IMG/VR virus record: IMGVR_UViG_3300044640_001869
Coordinates: 106,191 to 126,190 of that record
Reading direction: 5' to 3' (one strand)
Source: an uncultured virus (IMG/VR IMGVR_UViG_3300044640_001869)
Lineage: Duplodnaviria > Heunggongvirae > Uroviricota > Caudoviricetes
DNA: 20,000 bases
The translations under genes were made by a program, and so were the position numbers. Numbering within the stretch: position 1 is the first letter of the stretch; every line of letters begins with the position of its first letter. The notes under the pieces were generated by a model. That model saw nothing but the letters and a program-made list of their open reading frames with translations. It was not told the DNA's origin and did not search any database. Below, piece by piece: positions 2,674-11,487 of this stretch.

Positions 2674-2688
2674 ATATAATTTTTTATT

Positions 2689-2695
2689 ATAAATA
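2689..2695 (-). promoter_or_regulatory. TATTTAT putative late promoter
   Basis: Motif upstream of 2269..2673. Confidence 0.55.
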
Positions 2696-2729
2696 CACCC
2701 CCGTTTAAATAGGAGGTCCCTTTTCCCCC

Positions 2730-2752
2730 AAAATTTTTCCAGAAATTTTTTT
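2730..2752. repeat. 23-bp direct repeat, copy 2
   Basis: Identical to 2156-2178. Confidence 0.8.
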
Positions 2753-2819
2753 AGAGTTTTTAGTTACACGCTTTCTCAAAGGCATTATCCCCCCTTTTTG
2801 ACCCCCAAAATAGCCGGAA

Positions 2820-2876
2820 GGGGAGGGGGGATACGTAGGGGGGAGGGGTGTATAGGGGTATAGGGGGGTGGTAGGG
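2820..2876 (+). other. G-run cluster, potential G-quadruplex
   Basis: Seven G-runs of 3-6 nt separated by 1-7 nt loops in an otherwise AT-rich genome. Confidence 0.7.
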
Positions 2877-2976
2877 AGTATATCTCCCCCTGTCTGACTG
2901 TTTAAACCAAATTACCCCTCCCTGTCTGTAACGTTATGTATGGGGGTCAAGTCAAATAAATGATATATCCAAATAG

Positions 2977-3078
2977 AGTTATTAACCTGACAGTGTGTCA
3001 TAGTGGAGTTATTAACAGTGGGGATGTTGATAACTTCTTGGGGGTGACAGTGTGTCAGTTAGTAAGATGTTAATAACT
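2977..3078. promoter_or_regulatory. Cluster of DnaA-box-like 11-mers (TGTTRATAACT) and TGACA-N3-TGTCA palindromes, cluster 1
   Basis: AGTTATTAAC 2977-2986, TGACAGTGTGTCA 2988-3000, AGTTATTAACA 3007-3017, TGTTGATAACT 3025-3035, TGACAGTGTGTCA 3045-3057, TGTTAATAACT 3068-3078. Confidence 0.6.
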
Positions 3079-3117
3079 ATGATGGGGGAATGTAGTGCGT
3101 GGTATGATAATAATTTG

Positions 3118-3125
3118 TATCTTTG
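3118..3125 (+). promoter_or_regulatory. Bacteroidota-type -7 promoter element TATCTTTG
   Basis: Perfect TAnnTTTG immediately upstream of a structured non-coding stretch. Confidence 0.55.
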
Positions 3126-3129
3126 ATAA

Positions 3130-3310
3130 GTCAATGGTAATACCGAGACGGGTCAGGGATAGAATGAATCTCTAAGAGGGTAGACTCCAACCTGCCTTAT
3201 AGTGTAGTAAGACTTGGGGGTTATAAGCAGGTTCCCTTAGAACTCCCCACACTAAGTATATAGTCCGCCCGTCTTAACTACTCCCGTAAGTGACGGTACT
3301 AAGTTACGGA
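3130..3310 (+). ncRNA. Putative structured ncRNA (rod-like with a central bubble; 6S-like candidate)
   Basis: Nested stems 3145-3152/3268-3275, 3171-3180/3234-3241, 3189-3201/3222-3233; 3' hairpin 3284-3289/3304-3309; no ORF; upstream promoter. Confidence 0.5.
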
Positions 3311-3351
3311 TAATAATTGATTCCCCCACTATAAATGTTTATATTTTAACT

Positions 3352-3507
3352 ATGAAAACATTTCTTATAGTGATTGGTCTTATCTCCCTGATAATCATAT
3401 CGTTCATAGTGATTGAGTATATTGTTGGGAGACTACCTGAAGACCACAGGTTTGTATTGTGGTGGAGGAGACACGTTGTTGGAGTTAGTGACGACGACCT
3501 CTTCTAA
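3352..3507 (+). CDS. Small single-pass membrane protein (51 aa, MKTFLIVIGLISLIIISFIVIEYIVGRLPEDHRFVLWWRRHVVGVSDDDLF)
   Basis: Manually translated ORF below the track cut-off; hydrophobic N-terminal helix; stop overlaps the stop of the convergent gene. Confidence 0.7.
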   Translation: MKTFLIVIGLISLIIISFIVIEYIVGRLPEDHRFVLWWRRHVVGVSDDDLF

Positions 3508-4590: not shown

Positions 4591-5157
4591 TTATACTAAG
4601 AACTTCTTAGGGTCATACCAAAAACAACCTACACAAGTTCCTTCATAATTTATATTACCTTGTACAACTGAAACTGAACAACCTCTTTCTTTTGCATCAT
4701 ATCTAATGTTAGTCTTAGAACATTTTAGACAGTCAGACCTTTTTTGTTTATTAAGACTTTCTAATAGTGGTTGGAAATCATCTATAGTTTGTTTATCTAA
4801 ATTAAGTACATCATCAGGATATCTCCCATCTTTATGGTCTACTTCTATTTTGTGTCCGTTGTTTAGTTTAAGATTAGTAATAACACAGGGTTTGTTTCTA
4901 ACTTCATCCCATATATCTTTTCTGATTCTTCTTGTTCCGTTGTTATCTTTATACCCATTGAATCTCCATTGGGTTTCGTTATCTACAATACGTTTTTCGA
5001 ATATATATTTTTTAAGACCGACGTTTCTATACCAATGGTTTCCATTCTTTGGGAATAGTGTAATATATTTCCCCACGCATTCGGATTTGTTCACCCATCT
5101 TGATACACCATTTTGGTCGGGATTAAACAGTTCTATAACTAATTCGGTATTATTCAT
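4591..5157 (-). CDS. iceA: IceA1/NlaIII-family HNH restriction endonuclease-like protein
   Basis: Motifs PDQNGVSRWV, VGKY, IEVDHKDGR, QTIDDFQ, CLKC and CVGCFWYDP match Helicobacter IceA1 / R.NlaIII as I recall them; overlaps the stop of the upstream MTase. Confidence 0.8.
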   Translation of the reverse strand: MNNTELVIELFNPDQNGVSRWVNKSECVGKYITLFPKNGNHWYRNVGLKKYIFEKRIVDNETQWRFNGYKDNNGTRRIRKDIWDEVRNKPCVITNLKLNNGHKIEVDHKDGRYPDDVLNLDKQTIDDFQPLLESLNKQKRSDCLKCSKTNIRYDAKERGCSVSVVQGNINYEGTCVGCFWYDPKKFLV

Positions 5158-5929
5158 ATTTGTTTATTCTATCAATTGAGTATTCCACTTGTTCTTTACT
5201 AATTTCACTACCTATATAGTTTCTGTTATTCATCTTACAGGATAAACCTGTTGTCCCCGTTCCCATAAATGGGTCATATATAATATCTTGTTCTTTTGTA
5301 TATATGTTTATTAGTTTGGTACAGAGTTCTGATGAGTATGTTGCTTTATTAAGGTTAGTTGATTCGTCATTATTTTTTGCGGTGATAAAGTTATCAATTA
5401 CTTCATAGTAGTTCTGACCTTTCGGGGATGTTTTGGTAATTTGTTTATTACAGTTAAACGTTTTCACCTCATCTTTCCTGACGATAACAAAAATAAACTC
5501 TACGATTCTGTTTAATCTATTGTATGATGCTGGGTGAGGAATACTATTACTTTTCTTCCATACGATAGTATCTACCACCGTGAACGGAGTATTGTTAATG
5601 ATATGTGCTATCATTGTGTATGGTAGTGCGGGATTTTCTATTGAGTATGAGAAGTTATATAGTATAGTTCCGTTATTGATTAGGACCTTATCTATATTAT
5701 TGAATATCATTGAAGTCCACGTCAGGTATTCTTCTTCGGTTTTCCAATCAACGTATGTATCGTATCTATTTTGTTTATCTGCATATCCCCCTTTTCTTTT
5801 GGTCATATTGTATGGTGGCGACGTTATCACGCAATGAATGGATTTTGGTTCCATTCTATTCATTGTTATTATGCAGTCCTCGTTATATATTGTATTAATC
5901 ATATCAGTAATATAGTAATTATTTTCCAT
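5150..5929 (-). CDS. Beta-class N4-cytosine/N6-adenine DNA methyltransferase (N6_N4_Mtase family)
   Basis: Catalytic motif IV ITSPPY near the N-terminus and SAM-binding motif I DPFMGTGTT near the C-terminus, then YIGSEIS; SPPY favours m4C. Confidence 0.93.
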   Translation of the reverse strand: MENNYYITDMINTIYNEDCIITMNRMEPKSIHCVITSPPYNMTKRKGGYADKQNRYDTYVDWKTEEEYLTWTSMIFNNIDKVLINNGTILYNFSYSIENPALPYTMIAHIINNTPFTVVDTIVWKKSNSIPHPASYNRLNRIVEFIFVIVRKDEVKTFNCNKQITKTSPKGQNYYEVIDNFITAKNNDESTNLNKATYSSELCTKLINIYTKEQDIIYDPFMGTGTTGLSCKMNNRNYIGSEISKEQVEYSIDRINKYE

Positions 5930-7549: not shown

Positions 7550-7731
7550 TATGGTAGATATGTTAAGGTATAATAAATCCCCATTGCAAATGAGTTAGAT
7601 ATTGCGATTACTAATAACATTAACCACAGTTTTGGGTCTTGGTCAAATATATCGTAGTTACCATATAGTTTTTTAAACCTCATCAATCCGAAGATTGAGT
7701 ATAATGTTGAAAGTATTGTTATTGTTATCAT
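7549..7731 (-). CDS. Small membrane protein (two hydrophobic segments)
   Basis: 60 aa, overlapping start/stop codons with its neighbours. Confidence 0.75.
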   Translation of the reverse strand: MITITILSTLYSIFGLMRFKKLYGNYDIFDQDPKLWLMLLVIAISNSFAMGIYYTLTYLP

Positions 7732-7967
7732 TGTTTTTTATTTAGTTGTATTAATAATAAATCCACCCCTCTGATTGCACGTTCTGCAGCATCTTCAGGT
7801 GAGTAACCATTTGTGATTAGTCCTGACATTATTTGTGTTGCCATATATTCTCTTTTGGTCATACCTTTATTAGGATAACCTGAACCTGTATGTAATGGGA
7901 ATGCTAGTTGTTTCCCCACTTCCATTGCTTGTTCTTTGTTTAAGTTGTTTGCGTCTTCCTGTGTCAT
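7728..7967 (-). CDS. Conserved phage hypothetical protein (AFP...GMTKREY.A...M.GL family)
   Basis: Motif typical of a widespread small phage protein family. Confidence 0.8.
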   Translation of the reverse strand: MTQEDANNLNKEQAMEVGKQLAFPLHTGSGYPNKGMTKREYMATQIMSGLITNGYSPEDAAERAIRGVDLLLIQLNKKQ

Positions 7968-8024
7968 AATTTCAGATGTATTTATTACTCTCGTTTATAT
8001 TATAGGGGTAAGATTTACCCTCGT

Positions 8025-9347
8025 TTAATTTAATGTTTCTTCCACCTCATCTTCGCAGTCATCTAATAGGGACCACGTTGAGTCTACCTTACAATTTAGG
8101 GTATCTTCTACCCTCAAGAAGCGTGTGTTTCTTCCACAAAAAGTTGAATCTACCTTACAATTTAGGGTATCTTCTACCCTTAAAGGAAGCGATGATTGAA
8201 TATATGATGTTGAGAGTACCTTACAATTTAGGGTCTCTTCCACCTGTGTTCTATGTTTTCCGTTAAACCAATTTACCTCATCAACCTTACAATTGAGGAC
8301 CTCTTCCACCAAAATTTCATCGTTTTGAAAAACCCCAAGTGTTGAATCTACCTTAAAATTTAGTGTATCTTCTACCACACCACGATTTTCATTTTCATCA
8401 AAATAAATTGAATCAACCTTACAATTTAGGGTCTCTTCCACAAGTAATTCATTCCCATCTTTGTACCATTGGGCTCTGTTTACTTTACAATTTAGGGTAT
8501 CTTCCACATCCCTCGGAATAAATTTATTAATACTTACTGTTTTTACTACATTAAAATTTAGGGTCTCTTCCACCTCATCTTCGGTTAATTCTCTACCCGC
8601 CCATGTTGAGACTACCTTACAATTTAGGGTATCTTCCACCCCCTGGGCAGAATCTCCGTAACCCATTCCCGTTGTGTCTACCTTACAATTTAGGGTATCT
8701 TCCACATCCCTCGGAATAAATTTATTAATACTTACTGTTTTTACTACATTAAAATTTAGGGTGTCTTCTACCCCAGAACGCTCCAAATCGAGAAGATACT
8801 GCGTTGAGAGTACCTTACAATTTAGGGTGTCTTGCACCCAGGGGTTAATTGTTCCAACCACTCCTTGAGTTGAGTCTACCTTACAATTTAGGGTGTCATC
8901 CACCGGAATTGGTAAATATGAATCTCTGGAAACTGTTGAGTCTACCTTACAATTTAGGGTCTCTTCCACCTCAAAACGAGGGGCATTCCCATATCTAAAA
9001 GTTGAGTCTACCTTACAATTTAGGGTGTCTTGCACCGCGGTATTTTCATCTAAGTTGTGTAATTCAGTTCTACCTACCTTAGCATTTAGTTTATTTTCCA
9101 CCCATTCAGAGATTAATTCCTGAAACACCTCACTAGTCATTGCTAGCAAACTTGTAATCTTTTTGAAGTAATCATATCTCCACCACAGGTAATTGGTTTC
9201 AATTTTATATTCAAGGAACCAATATTTTCTTTCTCGGTTAACAAACCAAATCCCTTTTGTGTTTGGGTTATATATAATCTCACATTGATTGAGTTCTTTC
9301 TCAATACGTTTATAAAACCCCTCTTTATATTTTTCGGTATAATTCAT
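8025..9347 (-). CDS. Tandem-repeat protein: 82-aa N-terminal domain + 16 x 22-aa units (VEDTLNCKVDST + 10 variable aa) + terminal VEETLN
   Basis: 440-aa ORF with no stop codon in any variable segment; repeat variation is largely synonymous or conservative. Confidence 0.85.
   Translation of the reverse strand: MNYTEKYKEGFYKRIEKELNQCEIIYNPNTKGIWFVNRERKYWFLEYKIETNYLWWRYDYFKKITSLLAMTSEVFQELISEWVENKLNAKVGRTELHNLDENTAVQDTLNCKVDSTFRYGNAPRFEVEETLNCKVDSTVSRDSYLPIPVDDTLNCKVDSTQGVVGTINPWVQDTLNCKVLSTQYLLDLERSGVEDTLNFNVVKTVSINKFIPRDVEDTLNCKVDTTGMGYGDSAQGVEDTLNCKVVSTWAGRELTEDEVEETLNFNVVKTVSINKFIPRDVEDTLNCKVNRAQWYKDGNELLVEETLNCKVDSIYFDENENRGVVEDTLNFKVDSTLGVFQNDEILVEEVLNCKVDEVNWFNGKHRTQVEETLNCKVLSTSYIQSSLPLRVEDTLNCKVDSTFCGRNTRFLRVEDTLNCKVDSTWSLLDDCEDEVEETLN
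8028..9101. repeat. 66-bp-period repeat-spacer array (CRISPR-like architecture) within a CDS
   Basis: Plus-strand consensus GTTGAGTCTACCTTACAATTTAGGGTATCTTCCAC at 8077, 8143, 8209 ... 9067, exactly every 66 bp, separated by 31-nt mostly unique spacers. Confidence 0.95.
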
Positions 9348-9613
9348 AATCCGTTAGTGATTTTCACATTTAATAATTCTACATTAAACTCATTAACTAA
9401 TGATAGTAAAACCTCATCAGTCTTAGCCAATTTCGATAATTTACCCCAAGTTGTTTTGGAGAATTCTTTACCGAATTTCCCCAATATATTATTCGGTGAC
9501 CCGAAAGATTTATCAGGATAGTTAGTCATTACGTATAATTCAATTTTATCTTCTATGTCTCCAAGTTTCATAGCTTGTCCGTAATTCAATACCATTCCTT
9601 TGGTCATACTCAT
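9344..9613 (-). CDS. Hypothetical protein
   Basis: 89 aa, ATGA-coupled to both neighbours. Confidence 0.8.
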   Translation of the reverse strand: MSMTKGMVLNYGQAMKLGDIEDKIELYVMTNYPDKSFGSPNNILGKFGKEFSKTTWGKLSKLAKTDEVLLSLVNEFNVELLNVKITNGL

Positions 9614-9892: not shown

Positions 9893-11191
9893 TTATTTCT
9901 TTCTTGTTGGTATAAGACATAATTCATCAAATTCATCTTTTTGGATTTTCCAATCAAATTTATTATCTAAATAAAATGATTTATAACTAAACAAACCAAA
10001 AACTCTTTTACCAATAAGTTGTCGCTCATTTAATTTATATCCGTCACCTAATAAATTATCAAAATTAATACTACCATCATCTTGTTTGAGGTATTTTGAC
10101 AATATTGATTTTTGTTTATCATTTGAAGCAAAAAACATTTCATTAACTTCTTCTTTTGTTAAATCAATATAATTTTCTAATGGATTTCTATATCCAAAAC
10201 TCTTCAATTTACCTTGCCATTCGTCACAAGCGACCGAATATATTTCTTTTAATCCTTCTCTTGATAATTTTTGTGTTTCCATATTTTTCTCTTCTTTAAT
10301 AATTTCAGCCCATTTTCCATTTGCATATATAAATCCAAAACCTCCTTCAATACAACTACTTCCATATTTGGGGAACATATTAATTTCTTTAATGAATTTA
10401 TAAGGAACCCCATTTGAATTTAATGGAATGTATTTTGTCCCAATCGGGTAATGTTTTTTGGTGTGATATATTCTACCTTCAAGGGTTGTTAAATCAAATT
10501 CTTCTCCTTTAATAATTTCAGCCCATTTTCCATTTGCGTATATATAACCTTCCCCACCTTCTAACATCCCTTCTAACATCCCTTCAGGATGTAATCTGAT
10601 ATCATAATTAATGGACCTAATATTATGTACCCCCCAACTTTTACCTGTACTATATAATGGAATATATTTTGTTCCAATTGGATAATGTTGTCTTGCGTAA
10701 GCCAATCTTCCTTCAATGGTTGTTAAATCAAATTCTTTATCCATCTTAACTGTTAATTGAGATTCTTTTGAAAATTGTTCCCCACCATTTATATGTTGTT
10801 GTGATTCCATATAATCAATATGATTAATCATATCATCAATATGGATTTCCGTTCCGAATGGTATTTTAATGCCCCACCCTTCATCATTAATAACACCATA
10901 ATAAGGTCTATCAGAATTGAATATCCGACCACAAAAATCGGTATTATAATTTTTATTCAACCATTGAATATATTTCCCCCATTTAATTCCATCATCGCAG
11001 CTTTTAACACAGAATGATTCAGGTAGTTCGGTGATGACAACATCATCATTAAATAAACAATGGTTACCATTCTTTCCTGTAAAACACCTTTTAGGTAATC
11101 TAATGTCATAATAAACATCAATAATCTGATTATTTAAATATCTGTTATACCAAGTTGATTTATTATTTGAACTTAATATTTTAACTTTCAT
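9893..11191 (-). CDS. Mosaic multi-domain hypothetical protein with an internal duplicated domain (EFDLTT.EGR...YPIGTKYIPL...YANGKWAEIIK x2)
   Basis: Likely start MKVKIL at 11191 (ATGA overlap); duplication visible in protein and DNA. Confidence 0.85.
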   Translation of the reverse strand: MKVKILSSNNKSTWYNRYLNNQIIDVYYDIRLPKRCFTGKNGNHCLFNDDVVITELPESFCVKSCDDGIKWGKYIQWLNKNYNTDFCGRIFNSDRPYYGVINDEGWGIKIPFGTEIHIDDMINHIDYMESQQHINGGEQFSKESQLTVKMDKEFDLTTIEGRLAYARQHYPIGTKYIPLYSTGKSWGVHNIRSINYDIRLHPEGMLEGMLEGGEGYIYANGKWAEIIKGEEFDLTTLEGRIYHTKKHYPIGTKYIPLNSNGVPYKFIKEINMFPKYGSSCIEGGFGFIYANGKWAEIIKEEKNMETQKLSREGLKEIYSVACDEWQGKLKSFGYRNPLENYIDLTKEEVNEMFFASNDKQKSILSKYLKQDDGSINFDNLLGDGYKLNERQLIGKRVFGLFSYKSFYLDNKFDWKIQKDEFDELCLIPTRKK

Positions 11192-11487
11192 ATTATATTT
11201 TTTGTTAGGATTAAACAACCATCTTCATCTAATGCGGGTATAATATCACAGGAACATTCTTTTTCAGGTTCAGTACAACCATCAGGTAACCCACAAGACA
11301 TAACAACCCAAACATCCCATCCATCCAAATCATTTTTAGGAACATCACGTTCAATATCTTCGCAGTTATGTAGTGATAGTTTATATTTAACTAAATCAAA
11401 ATTTAATAACGGTCTTGTTGTCCCTAGTATAACTGTGTTAACAAACACGTAATAACCTTCTTCTTCTTTATATAAAATCCCCTTCAT
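11188..11487 (-). CDS. Hypothetical protein, paralog of 11484..11993
   Basis: Shared LSL.NC..IE, WDV..VM and PALDE.GCLIL; start MKGIL at 11487. Confidence 0.8.
   Translation of the reverse strand: MKGILYKEEEGYYVFVNTVILGTTRPLLNFDLVKYKLSLHNCEDIERDVPKNDLDGWDVWVVMSCGLPDGCTEPEKECSCDIIPALDEDGCLILTKNII

Follow-up and report, generated by a model that had tools for sequence, protein, structure and literature searches.

A phage protein gene with repeats resembling type VI-B CRISPR arrays

In type VI-B systems of CRISPR (clusters of regularly interspaced short palindromic repeats), the CRISPR RNAs (crRNAs) are spacer-repeat units made of 36-nt repeats and 30-nt spacers, the effector Cas13b cleaves at or near the 3' end of the repeat, and new spacers enter at the first repeat, as set out in the sections of PMC13187072 on these arrays. 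A VI-B array that lacks cas1 has been filled in trans by a type II-C Cas1 despite unlike leaders and repeats, and the II-C and VI-B repeats share their leader-distal end (the part of PMC8092290 on this array). Here we analyse a 20,000-nt stretch of DNA (the window), the last 20 kb of the 126,190-base record IMGVR_UViG_3300044640_001869 of the IMG/VR database, which is estimated to be 42% complete. The window holds a gene whose product joins an N-terminal domain (N-domain) to a long array of alternating constant and variable segments. The reading that we favour, and whose chances we put at about even, is that the repeat part of this gene is a translated array built like a type VI-B CRISPR array, running in the same direction as the gene and growing at the N-domain end.

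Host-repeat features carried by phages have been described before. Racrs (RNA anti-CRISPRs) are non-coding RNAs of small size that carry one repeat or two, at least 90% identical to host repeats (Camara-Wilpert et al. 2023, PMC10651486, in its account of the survey). In the same account type VI is the only type without reported solitary repeats, confident open reading frames (ORFs) having been masked before the search. Viral mini-arrays, with repeats identical to those of the host, employ host Cas proteins against related viruses, according to the portion of PMC11656645 devoted to them. As far as these accounts go (PMC10651486, PMC11656645), the array described here is like Racrs, solitary repeat units and mini-arrays in being a phage-borne host-repeat feature for which titration of a Cas effector is plausible. 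It differs from Racrs in having 16 repeats, an identity to host repeats of 75% at best, a position within an ORF and hundreds of diverse inserts across its family, and from the mini-arrays in that no host repeat found is identical to it and none of the 15 window inserts searched matches any of 19 related phage records. Full-text searches of the literature brought up no account of phage genes that contain translated CRISPR-type arrays or mimics of Cas13b repeats.

A 36-nt element under selection as DNA and as protein

The array comprises 16 units, each exactly 66 nt or 22 codons long, which run from 9101 to 8046 and are followed by a half unit. Tandem Repeats Finder returns the 66-nt period together with a 198-nt super-period, and a repeat search gives 13 in-register copies at 66-nt spacing with one step of 132 and no inverted repeats. 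An earlier note, written from the letters of the window alone, had described an in-frame CRISPR-like array that is also a protein, with an exact 66-bp period and 16 times 12 constant and 10 variable residues, and the sequence, its translation and both searches confirm this. The sequence also agrees with its statements that the variable codons of the window array are all stop-free, that the first unit is the most degenerate and is continuous with the N-domain, and that the array ends on a half repeat.

The division into a repeat of about 35 nt and a spacer of 31 nt given in the same note has to be revised. Over 108 unique units from 24 loci, the base ahead of the Val codon that opens the unit, which is the third of the last variable codon, is G in 93%, whatever the amino acid to which it belongs, and in the last constant codon (Thr, ACN) the third position is random (A.30, C.21, G.20, T.29). 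The constant element is therefore 36 nt long and the insert 30 nt, and the element starts one base ahead of the Val codon, offset by one base from the reading frame. The N-domain stands at the place that a leader occupies in a CRISPR array, and it closes with a Trp codon (TGG), the first 36-nt repeat beginning on the last G of that codon. Because 66 nt makes 22 codons and the reading frame meets no stop in the phage repeat, each unit is translated without a break into 12 constant and 10 variable residues.

The repeat consensus, GGTGGAAGA.....TAAAT..TAAGGTA....CAAC, contains synonymous sites that are close to fixation in the 108 units (GTG.86, GAA.97, AAT.90, AAG.93, GTA.85). Codon use in the genome is low for GTG (10%), AAG (14%), ACC (12%) and CTA (7%; 126 ORFs, 32,402 codons). 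We compared codon sharing at conserved residues only, among 13 lineages whose N-domains are less than 60% identical. The same codon is found in 433 of 558 cases in the repeat consensus and in 895 of 1824 in the N-domain, where the share is about the level expected from codon bias alone, synonymous sites being saturated. Neither shared ancestry nor codon bias explains the fixed codons of the repeat, and the 36-nt element is under nucleotide-level selection.

Repeat and inserts are under purifying selection at the protein level as well, as had been proposed from the window alone. Changes between inserts were counted on minimal spanning trees within insert clusters, with a neutral expectation that excludes stops. 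Of 93 changes, 52 lie at codon position 3 and 51 are synonymous (55%) versus 26% expected (p = 9e-9), an excess that corresponds to a ratio of nonsynonymous to synonymous change (dN/dS) near 0.3. The nine fully variable positions nevertheless have an entropy of 4.1-4.2 bits and no positional preference, and the composition of the variable residues falls between a random translation of 40%-GC DNA (Kullback-Leibler divergence 0.055) and the phage proteome (0.082); about 54% of random 30-mers are free of stops. The earlier remark that some spacers are far richer in GC than their surroundings holds for the insert of unit 7 (8640-8669, 60% GC), whereas in the family at large the effect is mild, inserts averaging 39.6% GC against 31% for the genome.

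Likeness to the Cas13b arrays of Bacteroidota

Host arrays were sought with a pattern that demanded the G.TG start and the AAGGTA....CAAC end in two repeats one insert apart (66 nt), in the sense orientation of the gene. Repeats of the Cas13b type have a G.TG start, an [AG]GGTA....CAAC end and a U-rich middle. The pattern, which is a guided test in that its positions were chosen as typical of Cas13b repeats, retrieved 93 stretches, nearly all from Bacteroidota (Flavobacterium, Mesonia, Myroides, Sphingobacterium, Parapedobacter, Prevotella/Segatella, Dysgonomonas and others). The matched stretches are true 36+30 CRISPR arrays, most of them beside cas13b, with 62 distinct 36-nt repeats and 30-nt spacers. 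Among 33 large ORFs tested from their neighbourhood, 25 pass the NCBI Cas13b model, two are below its cut-off, two have no match, and four are unrelated and not adjacent to the array. When Cas13b loci were located through the protein alone, in two of 401 sampled Bacteroidota genomes, both had the same kind of array downstream. At the level of sequence motifs, the phage repeat resembles the Cas13b repeats of Bacteroidota at its ends and in the AAGGTA....CAAC block.

The type VI-B arrays of Segatella buccae ATCC 33574 (L194) and of Flavobacterium spp. (L189, L229) share with the phage array the 36-nt repeat, the 30-nt insert and the 66-nt period, the same start and end motifs in register, and the same orientation to the upstream element. 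Both kinds of array show turnover at the upstream end, a conserved far end or trailer and a degenerate last repeat, the half repeat of the phage, cut after about 19 nt, being comparable to the degenerate last repeat of L189. The leader-distal end common to II-C and VI-B repeats, which in crRNA sense reads ...ACAAC, is kept in the phage repeat too. Unlike type VI-B arrays, which are non-coding, the phage array sits in a translated ORF fused to a protein domain, its inserts are under protein-level selection, and no cas gene was found in 40 phage records. Host repeats such as that of L189 contain TGA codons in the frame used by the phage, and the phage repeat is without them.

Two observations concern the host arrays themselves. 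In Flavobacterium jejuense (L189, 10390-10905) a 171-codon ORF runs through a genuine Cas13b array; an array of this kind can be open by chance, since 66 is a multiple of three and the frame is kept, which cautions against reading too much into an open frame. In Parapedobacter and Sphingobacterium (L222, L235, L183, L204), Cas13b-type repeats starting with GGTG occur as many separate mini-arrays of two or three repeats. These are scattered across 2-3 kb, with small PIN-like and RelE/ParE-like ORFs between them and no cas13b within 10 kb. Their repeats are, of all host repeats, the ones most like those of the window (26/36).

The same likeness can be read at the level of the RNA. The transcript would then be a multi-copy mimic of the Cas13b crRNA precursor, a Racr-like decoy whose 16 repeats load host Cas13b with harmless guides, with translation a secondary matter that, for example, keeps a long RNA stable and fully transcribed. 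We judge this distinctly unlikely. Several observations agree with it. Nucleotide-level selection acts on an element of exactly 36 nt in the sense orientation, and its ends and the AAGGTA....CAAC block are common to Cas13b repeats. A central stem (columns 10-16 with 22-28, 7 positions) has at least five pairs in 285 of 350 unique repeats in sense versus 87 in antisense, two of its pairs being held by G-U wobble on the sense strand only, and the inserts match nothing in the phage itself, as befits a harmless guide. Defence by Cas13b falls about 1000-fold when a non-targeting crRNA is supplied in trans (PMC13187072, in the section describing that experiment), and since the Racr survey, as its account in PMC10651486 describes it, masked ORFs and reports no type VI examples, a mimic within an ORF would have been missed. 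However, an RNA of this kind needs neither the purifying selection on the inserts nor the open frame found in every member, and the N-domain is strongly conserved and always fused to the repeats. The phage repeat reaches no more than 75% identity with the host repeats found, below the 90% threshold for Racrs, and its 5' third differs; the repeats show no consensus fold and no covariation; and both the polar turnover and the diversity of the inserts would be left unexplained.

A further possibility, which we regard as very improbable, is that the array feeds guides of the phage's choosing to the host Cas13b, directing it at rival phages or at transcripts of the host. A precedent exists in viral mini-arrays, by which host Cas proteins are turned on related viruses (PMC11656645, in its treatment of such arrays), and the array lies in crRNA-sense orientation and is probably transcribed with the gene. 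The inserts point the other way: none of the window's 15 matches the 19 related phage records, none of three insert cores matches IMG/VR, and nothing was found in 401 plus 401 sampled bacterial genomes. Activation of Cas13 arrests the cell, which would harm the resident phage too. Protein-level selection would be unexplained, and mini-array repeats are identical to those of the host (same part of PMC11656645), which the repeats of the phage array are not.

Unit turnover and the competing explanations

A word-indexed protein search recovered four relatives of the array protein, and a profile made from these four recovered at least 500 cluster representatives at E<=1e-3, 260 of those listed being at <=1e-10. 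The loci fetched comprise 28 viral loci, 15 of a distant clade and at least about 80 from metagenomes, on contigs of up to 294 kb. The family is absent from 50,697 GenBank phage records searched by DNA and by tblastn, the DNA search giving only 28-nt chance matches in the N-domain and tblastn none. Of the 79 5'-complete ORFs with the repeat, 76 have the N-domain ahead of it (55 recognised by motif and 21 on inspection by eye). The remainder consists of two lone chance matches, in genes that are unrelated (L112, L119), and of one fragment of 70 residues (L127), and no 'naked' array with the phage repeat was found. Many of the related phages have two to four tandem paralogs. Such head-to-tail genes, in L008, L018-L022, L029, L030, L062 and L123, have each their own N-domain and insert set, and orthologous positions across phages form separate colinear groups. 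In the 126-kb record studied here the array gene has no paralog, its sole match being to itself (100%).

Parsing of 122 ORFs yielded 681 units and 85 complete arrays that are distinct; in 49 of these, two or more inserts recur in another array. The interval between units is 66 nt in 319 of 398 cases, a multiple of 66 in 61 (where the parser overlooked a degenerate repeat) and of another length in 18. The 681 units reduce to 500 unique inserts in 436 clusters, 342 of which are confined to one ORF, and pairs of inserts either differ at 1-6 positions (90 pairs) or at about 22 of 30, as unrelated sequences would, with none at 7-8. When arrays are taken as independent, with no correction for ancestry, shared inserts stand in the same order in 94 of 95 array pairs, and 53 of the 95 pairs share the last unit versus 9 that share the first. 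On the same footing, singleton inserts number 61, 35 and 23 in the N-proximal, middle and C-proximal thirds, against 69, 77 and 73 shared ones (Mann-Whitney p = 7e-5), and distinct first units outnumber distinct last units in all five groups of three or more arrays (8 v 3, 8 v 5, 6 v 2, 4 v 2 and 3 v 1).

Whole units are thus gained and lost, order is kept, the far end is conserved and novelty lies beside the N-domain, which is a CRISPR-like population behaviour. A length-preserving mode of diversification had been suggested in the earlier note and is borne out, 380 of the 398 intervals being 66 nt or a multiple of it and arrays differing by whole units with turnover at one end; the comparison of unit number, order and polarity among homologs that it proposed gives the colinearity and the polar novelty just described. 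Its own counter-case, an ordinary repeat protein with spacers that align to each other and are conserved position by position, is not what the family shows, for the inserts are unalignable and are conserved across relatives only as colinear cassettes. The closest relative (L005), 263 aa long and with eight units, shares unit 1 (identical in protein sequence), insert 11 (one synonymous change) and the last insert with the window, in the same order. The last insert is also kept in L006 (WVLADDCEDE, with synonymous changes) and in P0002 (WSLLDDREDV), and the last full unit is the conserved 'trailer' end. L006 and L007 share one insert at different positions, and units 6 and 9 of the window are a duplicated pair with the same insert.

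Both observations bear on the most sober alternative, that of an old solenoid-repeat protein in which each 22-residue coil has a constant face and a free loop. Units would be shuffled, lost and duplicated by homologous recombination, through exchange within the array, between tandem paralogs or between co-infecting phages, concerted evolution would keep the repeat DNA uniform, and the likeness to Cas13b repeats would be a relic of origin or chance, with no CRISPR enzyme at work today. We consider this rather unlikely. Several findings fit it. A unit has been duplicated within the window, L006 and L007 hold a common insert at different places, the two to four tandem paralogs of many phages could swap units, the inserts are under protein-level selection, and neither protospacers (in the samples searched) nor cas genes (in 40 phage records) were found. 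In a distant clade (L034-L048; P0121, P0133-P0156), whose repeat is VEDTIQNGVKET, the repeat peptide is kept with other nucleotides and looser unit lengths. Proteins of this clade reach 562 aa, and their conserved cassettes (for example ...EYGDWLDGDER..., ...HDDVYHHKGR..., ...SLQIDGSCV...) recur in different orders from one protein to another.

Structural modelling also has a bearing on this alternative. AlphaFold models the N-domain with confidence (predicted local distance difference test, pLDDT, 94; predicted template-modelling score, pTM, 0.82). No clear solved relative emerged for it from a profile against PDB sequences or from Foldseek (E >= 0.9), nor from VIA, where the best match was to homeodomain helices (Z 5.4, root-mean-square deviation, rmsd, 2.5, 55 aligned), and in the ESM Atlas only unnamed viral clusters matched, at 0.80. 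The repeat part is modelled poorly (pLDDT 25-70). Its best-modelled stretch, residues ~285-440, resembles right-handed beta-helices, best the CBA120 tailspike TSP3 (VIA Z 10.5, rmsd 3.2, 147 aligned), with tailspikes, the CAP C-domain and pectate lyases at Z 10.5-8, values that are middling for repeats. The structure check suggested in the earlier note gives a confident N-domain and a solenoid likeness of middling score; the array product would probably be beta-solenoid-like. Right-handed parallel beta-helix proteins such as tailspikes and pectate lyases have about 22 residues per coil. The phage array shares this period, and the low-confidence model of residues ~285-440 aligns with them; unlike them it has no sequence-family match, lies in an early/accessory region rather than a tail module, and holds its unit length far more rigidly.

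Several findings are hard to reconcile with recombination among the units of such a protein. The same rare codons are fixed in 13 lineages in which synonymous sites of the N-domain are at the codon-bias level, the G before the unit is imposed on any amino acid, and the 36-nt element has a sharp boundary. Novel inserts gather at one end and the far end is conserved, where recombination alone should be symmetric. As many as 342 of 436 insert clusters come from a single ORF, inserts are either 'same' or 'unrelated' without anything in between, and an entropy of 4.1-4.2 bits with no positional preference is odd for the loops of a folded coil. The low confidence of the repeat-part model also tells against a regular solenoid.

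Comparable alternations of constant segments with hypervariable short ones, with uniform repeat DNA, are known from multi-core cyanobactin precursors, TAL (transcription activator-like) effectors and variable lymphocyte receptor-like scaffolds. These are not known to have the CRISPR-type repeat, the 36+30 architecture or the polar addition of units, and we saw no gene for a modifying enzyme or protease beside the array gene in Pfam and PHROGs scans. Diversity-generating retroelements likewise give a phage gene a hypervariable region of preserved length. The phage array, however, has no template/variable repeat pair, its inserts have no second copy in the record, and they are mutually unrelated rather than adenine-mutated copies; reverse transcriptase was found in none of 13 phage records, among them a 100% complete genome of 293,850 bp. 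Other explanations were set aside: replication iterons or partition sites (a dyad is missing, and helical turns do not fit into 66 bp a whole number of times), pauses of the Shine-Dalgarno-like kind or internal GTG starts, GC-biased gene conversion (not all of the fixed codons end in G or C), shufflon-type inversion (inverted repeats are lacking) and a precursor of a ribosomally synthesized and post-translationally modified peptide (no modifying enzyme lies nearby in the same scans).

On the reading that we favour, a translated array of type VI-B build, integration of the CRISPR type would place new units beside the N-domain; we infer this step, the enzyme behind it and what the phage gains. 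By analogy with VI-B arrays that lack cas1, the integrating agent would most likely be host Cas1-Cas2 acting in trans. Only stop-free inserts would persist, selection would then act on the peptides, and the product would be a protein carrying a changing set of 10-residue peptides. The transcript, with its 16 Cas13b-type repeats, may in addition soak up Cas13b, and the benefit could come from the protein, the RNA or both. In its boldest form, a CRISPR array would have become a protein-coding generator of diversity. The phage would retain a Cas13b-type repeat without stops in one frame, integration by the host would drop in random 30-nt pieces beside the N-domain, and selection would act on the translated pieces as an expanding library of 10-residue peptides on a repeat scaffold, while the transcript may disarm Cas13b; we hold this form to be tenable but less than probable.

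A number of results weigh against the array having a CRISPR origin or mode of growth. A fuller pattern with most of the conserved bases, including GAAGA and TAAAT, had no match in the genomes of 185,579 species, so the phage repeat is not equalled by any known host repeat. The match at motif level comes from the guided pattern, and the best identity between a host and the phage repeat is 27/36 (75%), with 13 of those positions forced by that pattern; the 5' third and the loop differ. BLAST of the window array against five array-bearing bacterial genomes gave no repeat similarity, and no leader motif shared between host arrays and the end of the N-domain was seen. The distant clade has no G ahead of the unit, and its kept peptide with other nucleotides fits a protein-first history. 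RNAalifold found no consensus hairpin in the repeats on either strand. For a hairpin drawn by hand, in which columns 11-16 face 22-27 and the ends also pair, the share of paired cells is 85.9% in sense, 78.6% in antisense and 23-49% with slid partners, and its covariation is no better than that of column shuffles. Twenty runs from a lake hold the phage, and among the 24 runs listed no RNA run holds it.

The search for a source of the inserts, which the earlier note had recommended in phage and host genomes, gave none; it covered samples of the collections. There was no source for 114 inserts in the phage's own record and the locus flanks, none for the window array in the 19 related phage records, in the five array-bearing bacterial genomes or in 401 Flavobacteriaceae genomes, none for the array of another locus in 401 Bacteroidota genomes (two first-look candidates per genome being scored in each set of 401), and none for the three insert cores in IMG/VR. 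Among the Flavobacteriaceae the best match falls within a gene for a PDZ protease; it resembles a repeat by chance and involves no insert. The note's statement that the window contains no reverse transcriptase, Cas or recombinase gene stands for the 39 ORFs scanned with Pfam and PHROGs, and its suggestion to look beyond the window produced nothing further: Cas1 was found in none of 40 related phage records and reverse transcriptase in none of 13. Cas13b was likewise found in none of the 40 records, which are mostly fragments, the model being the same one that matched in two of 401 bacterial genomes.

The rate and direction of turnover are similarly qualified. The colinearity and polarity counts carry no correction for ancestry, and the polarity could instead reflect stronger selection on C-terminal units. 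Variation at the level of reads, another check that had been proposed, was not seen: Logan contigs of four lake runs contain pieces of the array with 0 differences from the record, so the array is identical across the four runs and turnover is not fast. In run X9/X13 one low-depth contig skips exactly eight units (528 nt), 8025-8554; with only 22 nt supporting one side, it was not used. The same run holds a minor co-occurring strain, at about a quarter of the depth, with 11 differing sites in the downstream gene (7867-7944).

Gene neighbourhood and implications

The window is a fragment of a jumbo phage from a lake. The record has a GC content of 31% and encodes T4-like head, portal, terminase and prohead-protease genes together with a Lon-like protease, an RNA ligase and a thymidylate synthase. 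The nearest cultured phage to its major capsid protein is Flavobacterium phage vB_FspM_immuto, at 39%, and the host phylum is likely to be Bacteroidota. The features of the array gene and its neighbours are given in Table 1.

Table 1. Coordinates of the array gene, its parts and the adjoining genes in the window.
Feature	Position	Strand	Description
Array gene, protein P0001	8025..9347	minus	440 codons + stop (8025-8027)
N-domain, residues 1-82	9102..9347	minus	helix, four-stranded sheet, two helices; not repetitive
Unit 1	9036..9101	minus	most degenerate repeat (VENKLNAKVGRT), insert ELHNLDENTA
Units 2-16	8046..9035	minus	15 x 66 nt, VE[DE]TLNCKVDST + 10 variable residues each
Last full unit (16)	8046..8111	minus	insert WSLLDDCEDE; identical in L005
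Terminal half repeat	8028..8045	minus	VEETLN, then stop; about the first 19 nt of the repeat retained
Duplicated unit, copy one	8477..8577	minus	repeat variant VE.TLNFNVVKT + insert VSINKFIPRD
Duplicated unit, copy two	8675-8775	minus	95% identical to 8477-8577 over 101 nt
Downstream 79-aa gene	7728..7967	minus	syntenic in relative L005
Upstream 89-aa ORF	9344..9613	minus	stop overlaps the array gene start codon by 4 nt, operon-like

The array gene belongs to a run of small genes on the same strand for which a Pfam and PHROGs scan gives no known function, and the array protein itself returned nothing usable from either collection. One Pfam row, PLCG EF-hand motif 1, reached 25.7 bits against a cut-off of 23.9; it is taken as repeat noise because no single stretch passed alone. 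Rfam gave two rows on 7900-9400, both of them chance. Elsewhere in the window, a restriction-modification pair lies on the minus strand at 4591-5929, where an ICEA/NlaIII-family endonuclease (Pfam E 5.6e-35) overlaps an N6/N4 DNA methyltransferase (E 2.1e-38). The interval 2674-3503, about 0.8 kb, has no listed ORF of at least 50 aa on the gene strand and includes a 20-nt tandem repeat at 2845-2882. Inside a 441-aa ORF (9893..11218), position 10500 is joined back to 10290 (211 nt) in the contigs from each of the four lake runs, three of the four contig sets skip 10331-10472, and a 12-nt tandem repeat lies close by at 10557-10585; the joins suggest that a tandem repeat at 10290-10500 has one length in the record and another in the populations.

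Even under the most sober of the alternatives, the gene is a case of unusually strict dual coding, with selection at the DNA and the protein level on the same 36 bases. If the array is what we take it to be, CRISPR repeats can live within genes and be translated, and array finders and Racr surveys that mask ORFs would miss a whole class of them. The gene would be the first candidate for a repeat-based counter-measure or mimic aimed at type VI-B. It would also place beside the diversity-generating retroelements a testable, length-preserving and cassette-wise way of diversifying a protein, and would provide a natural scaffold of 12+10 residues with hundreds of unrelated 10-mers. The hardware of adaptive immunity would then have been reused by a virus to evolve a protein of its own.

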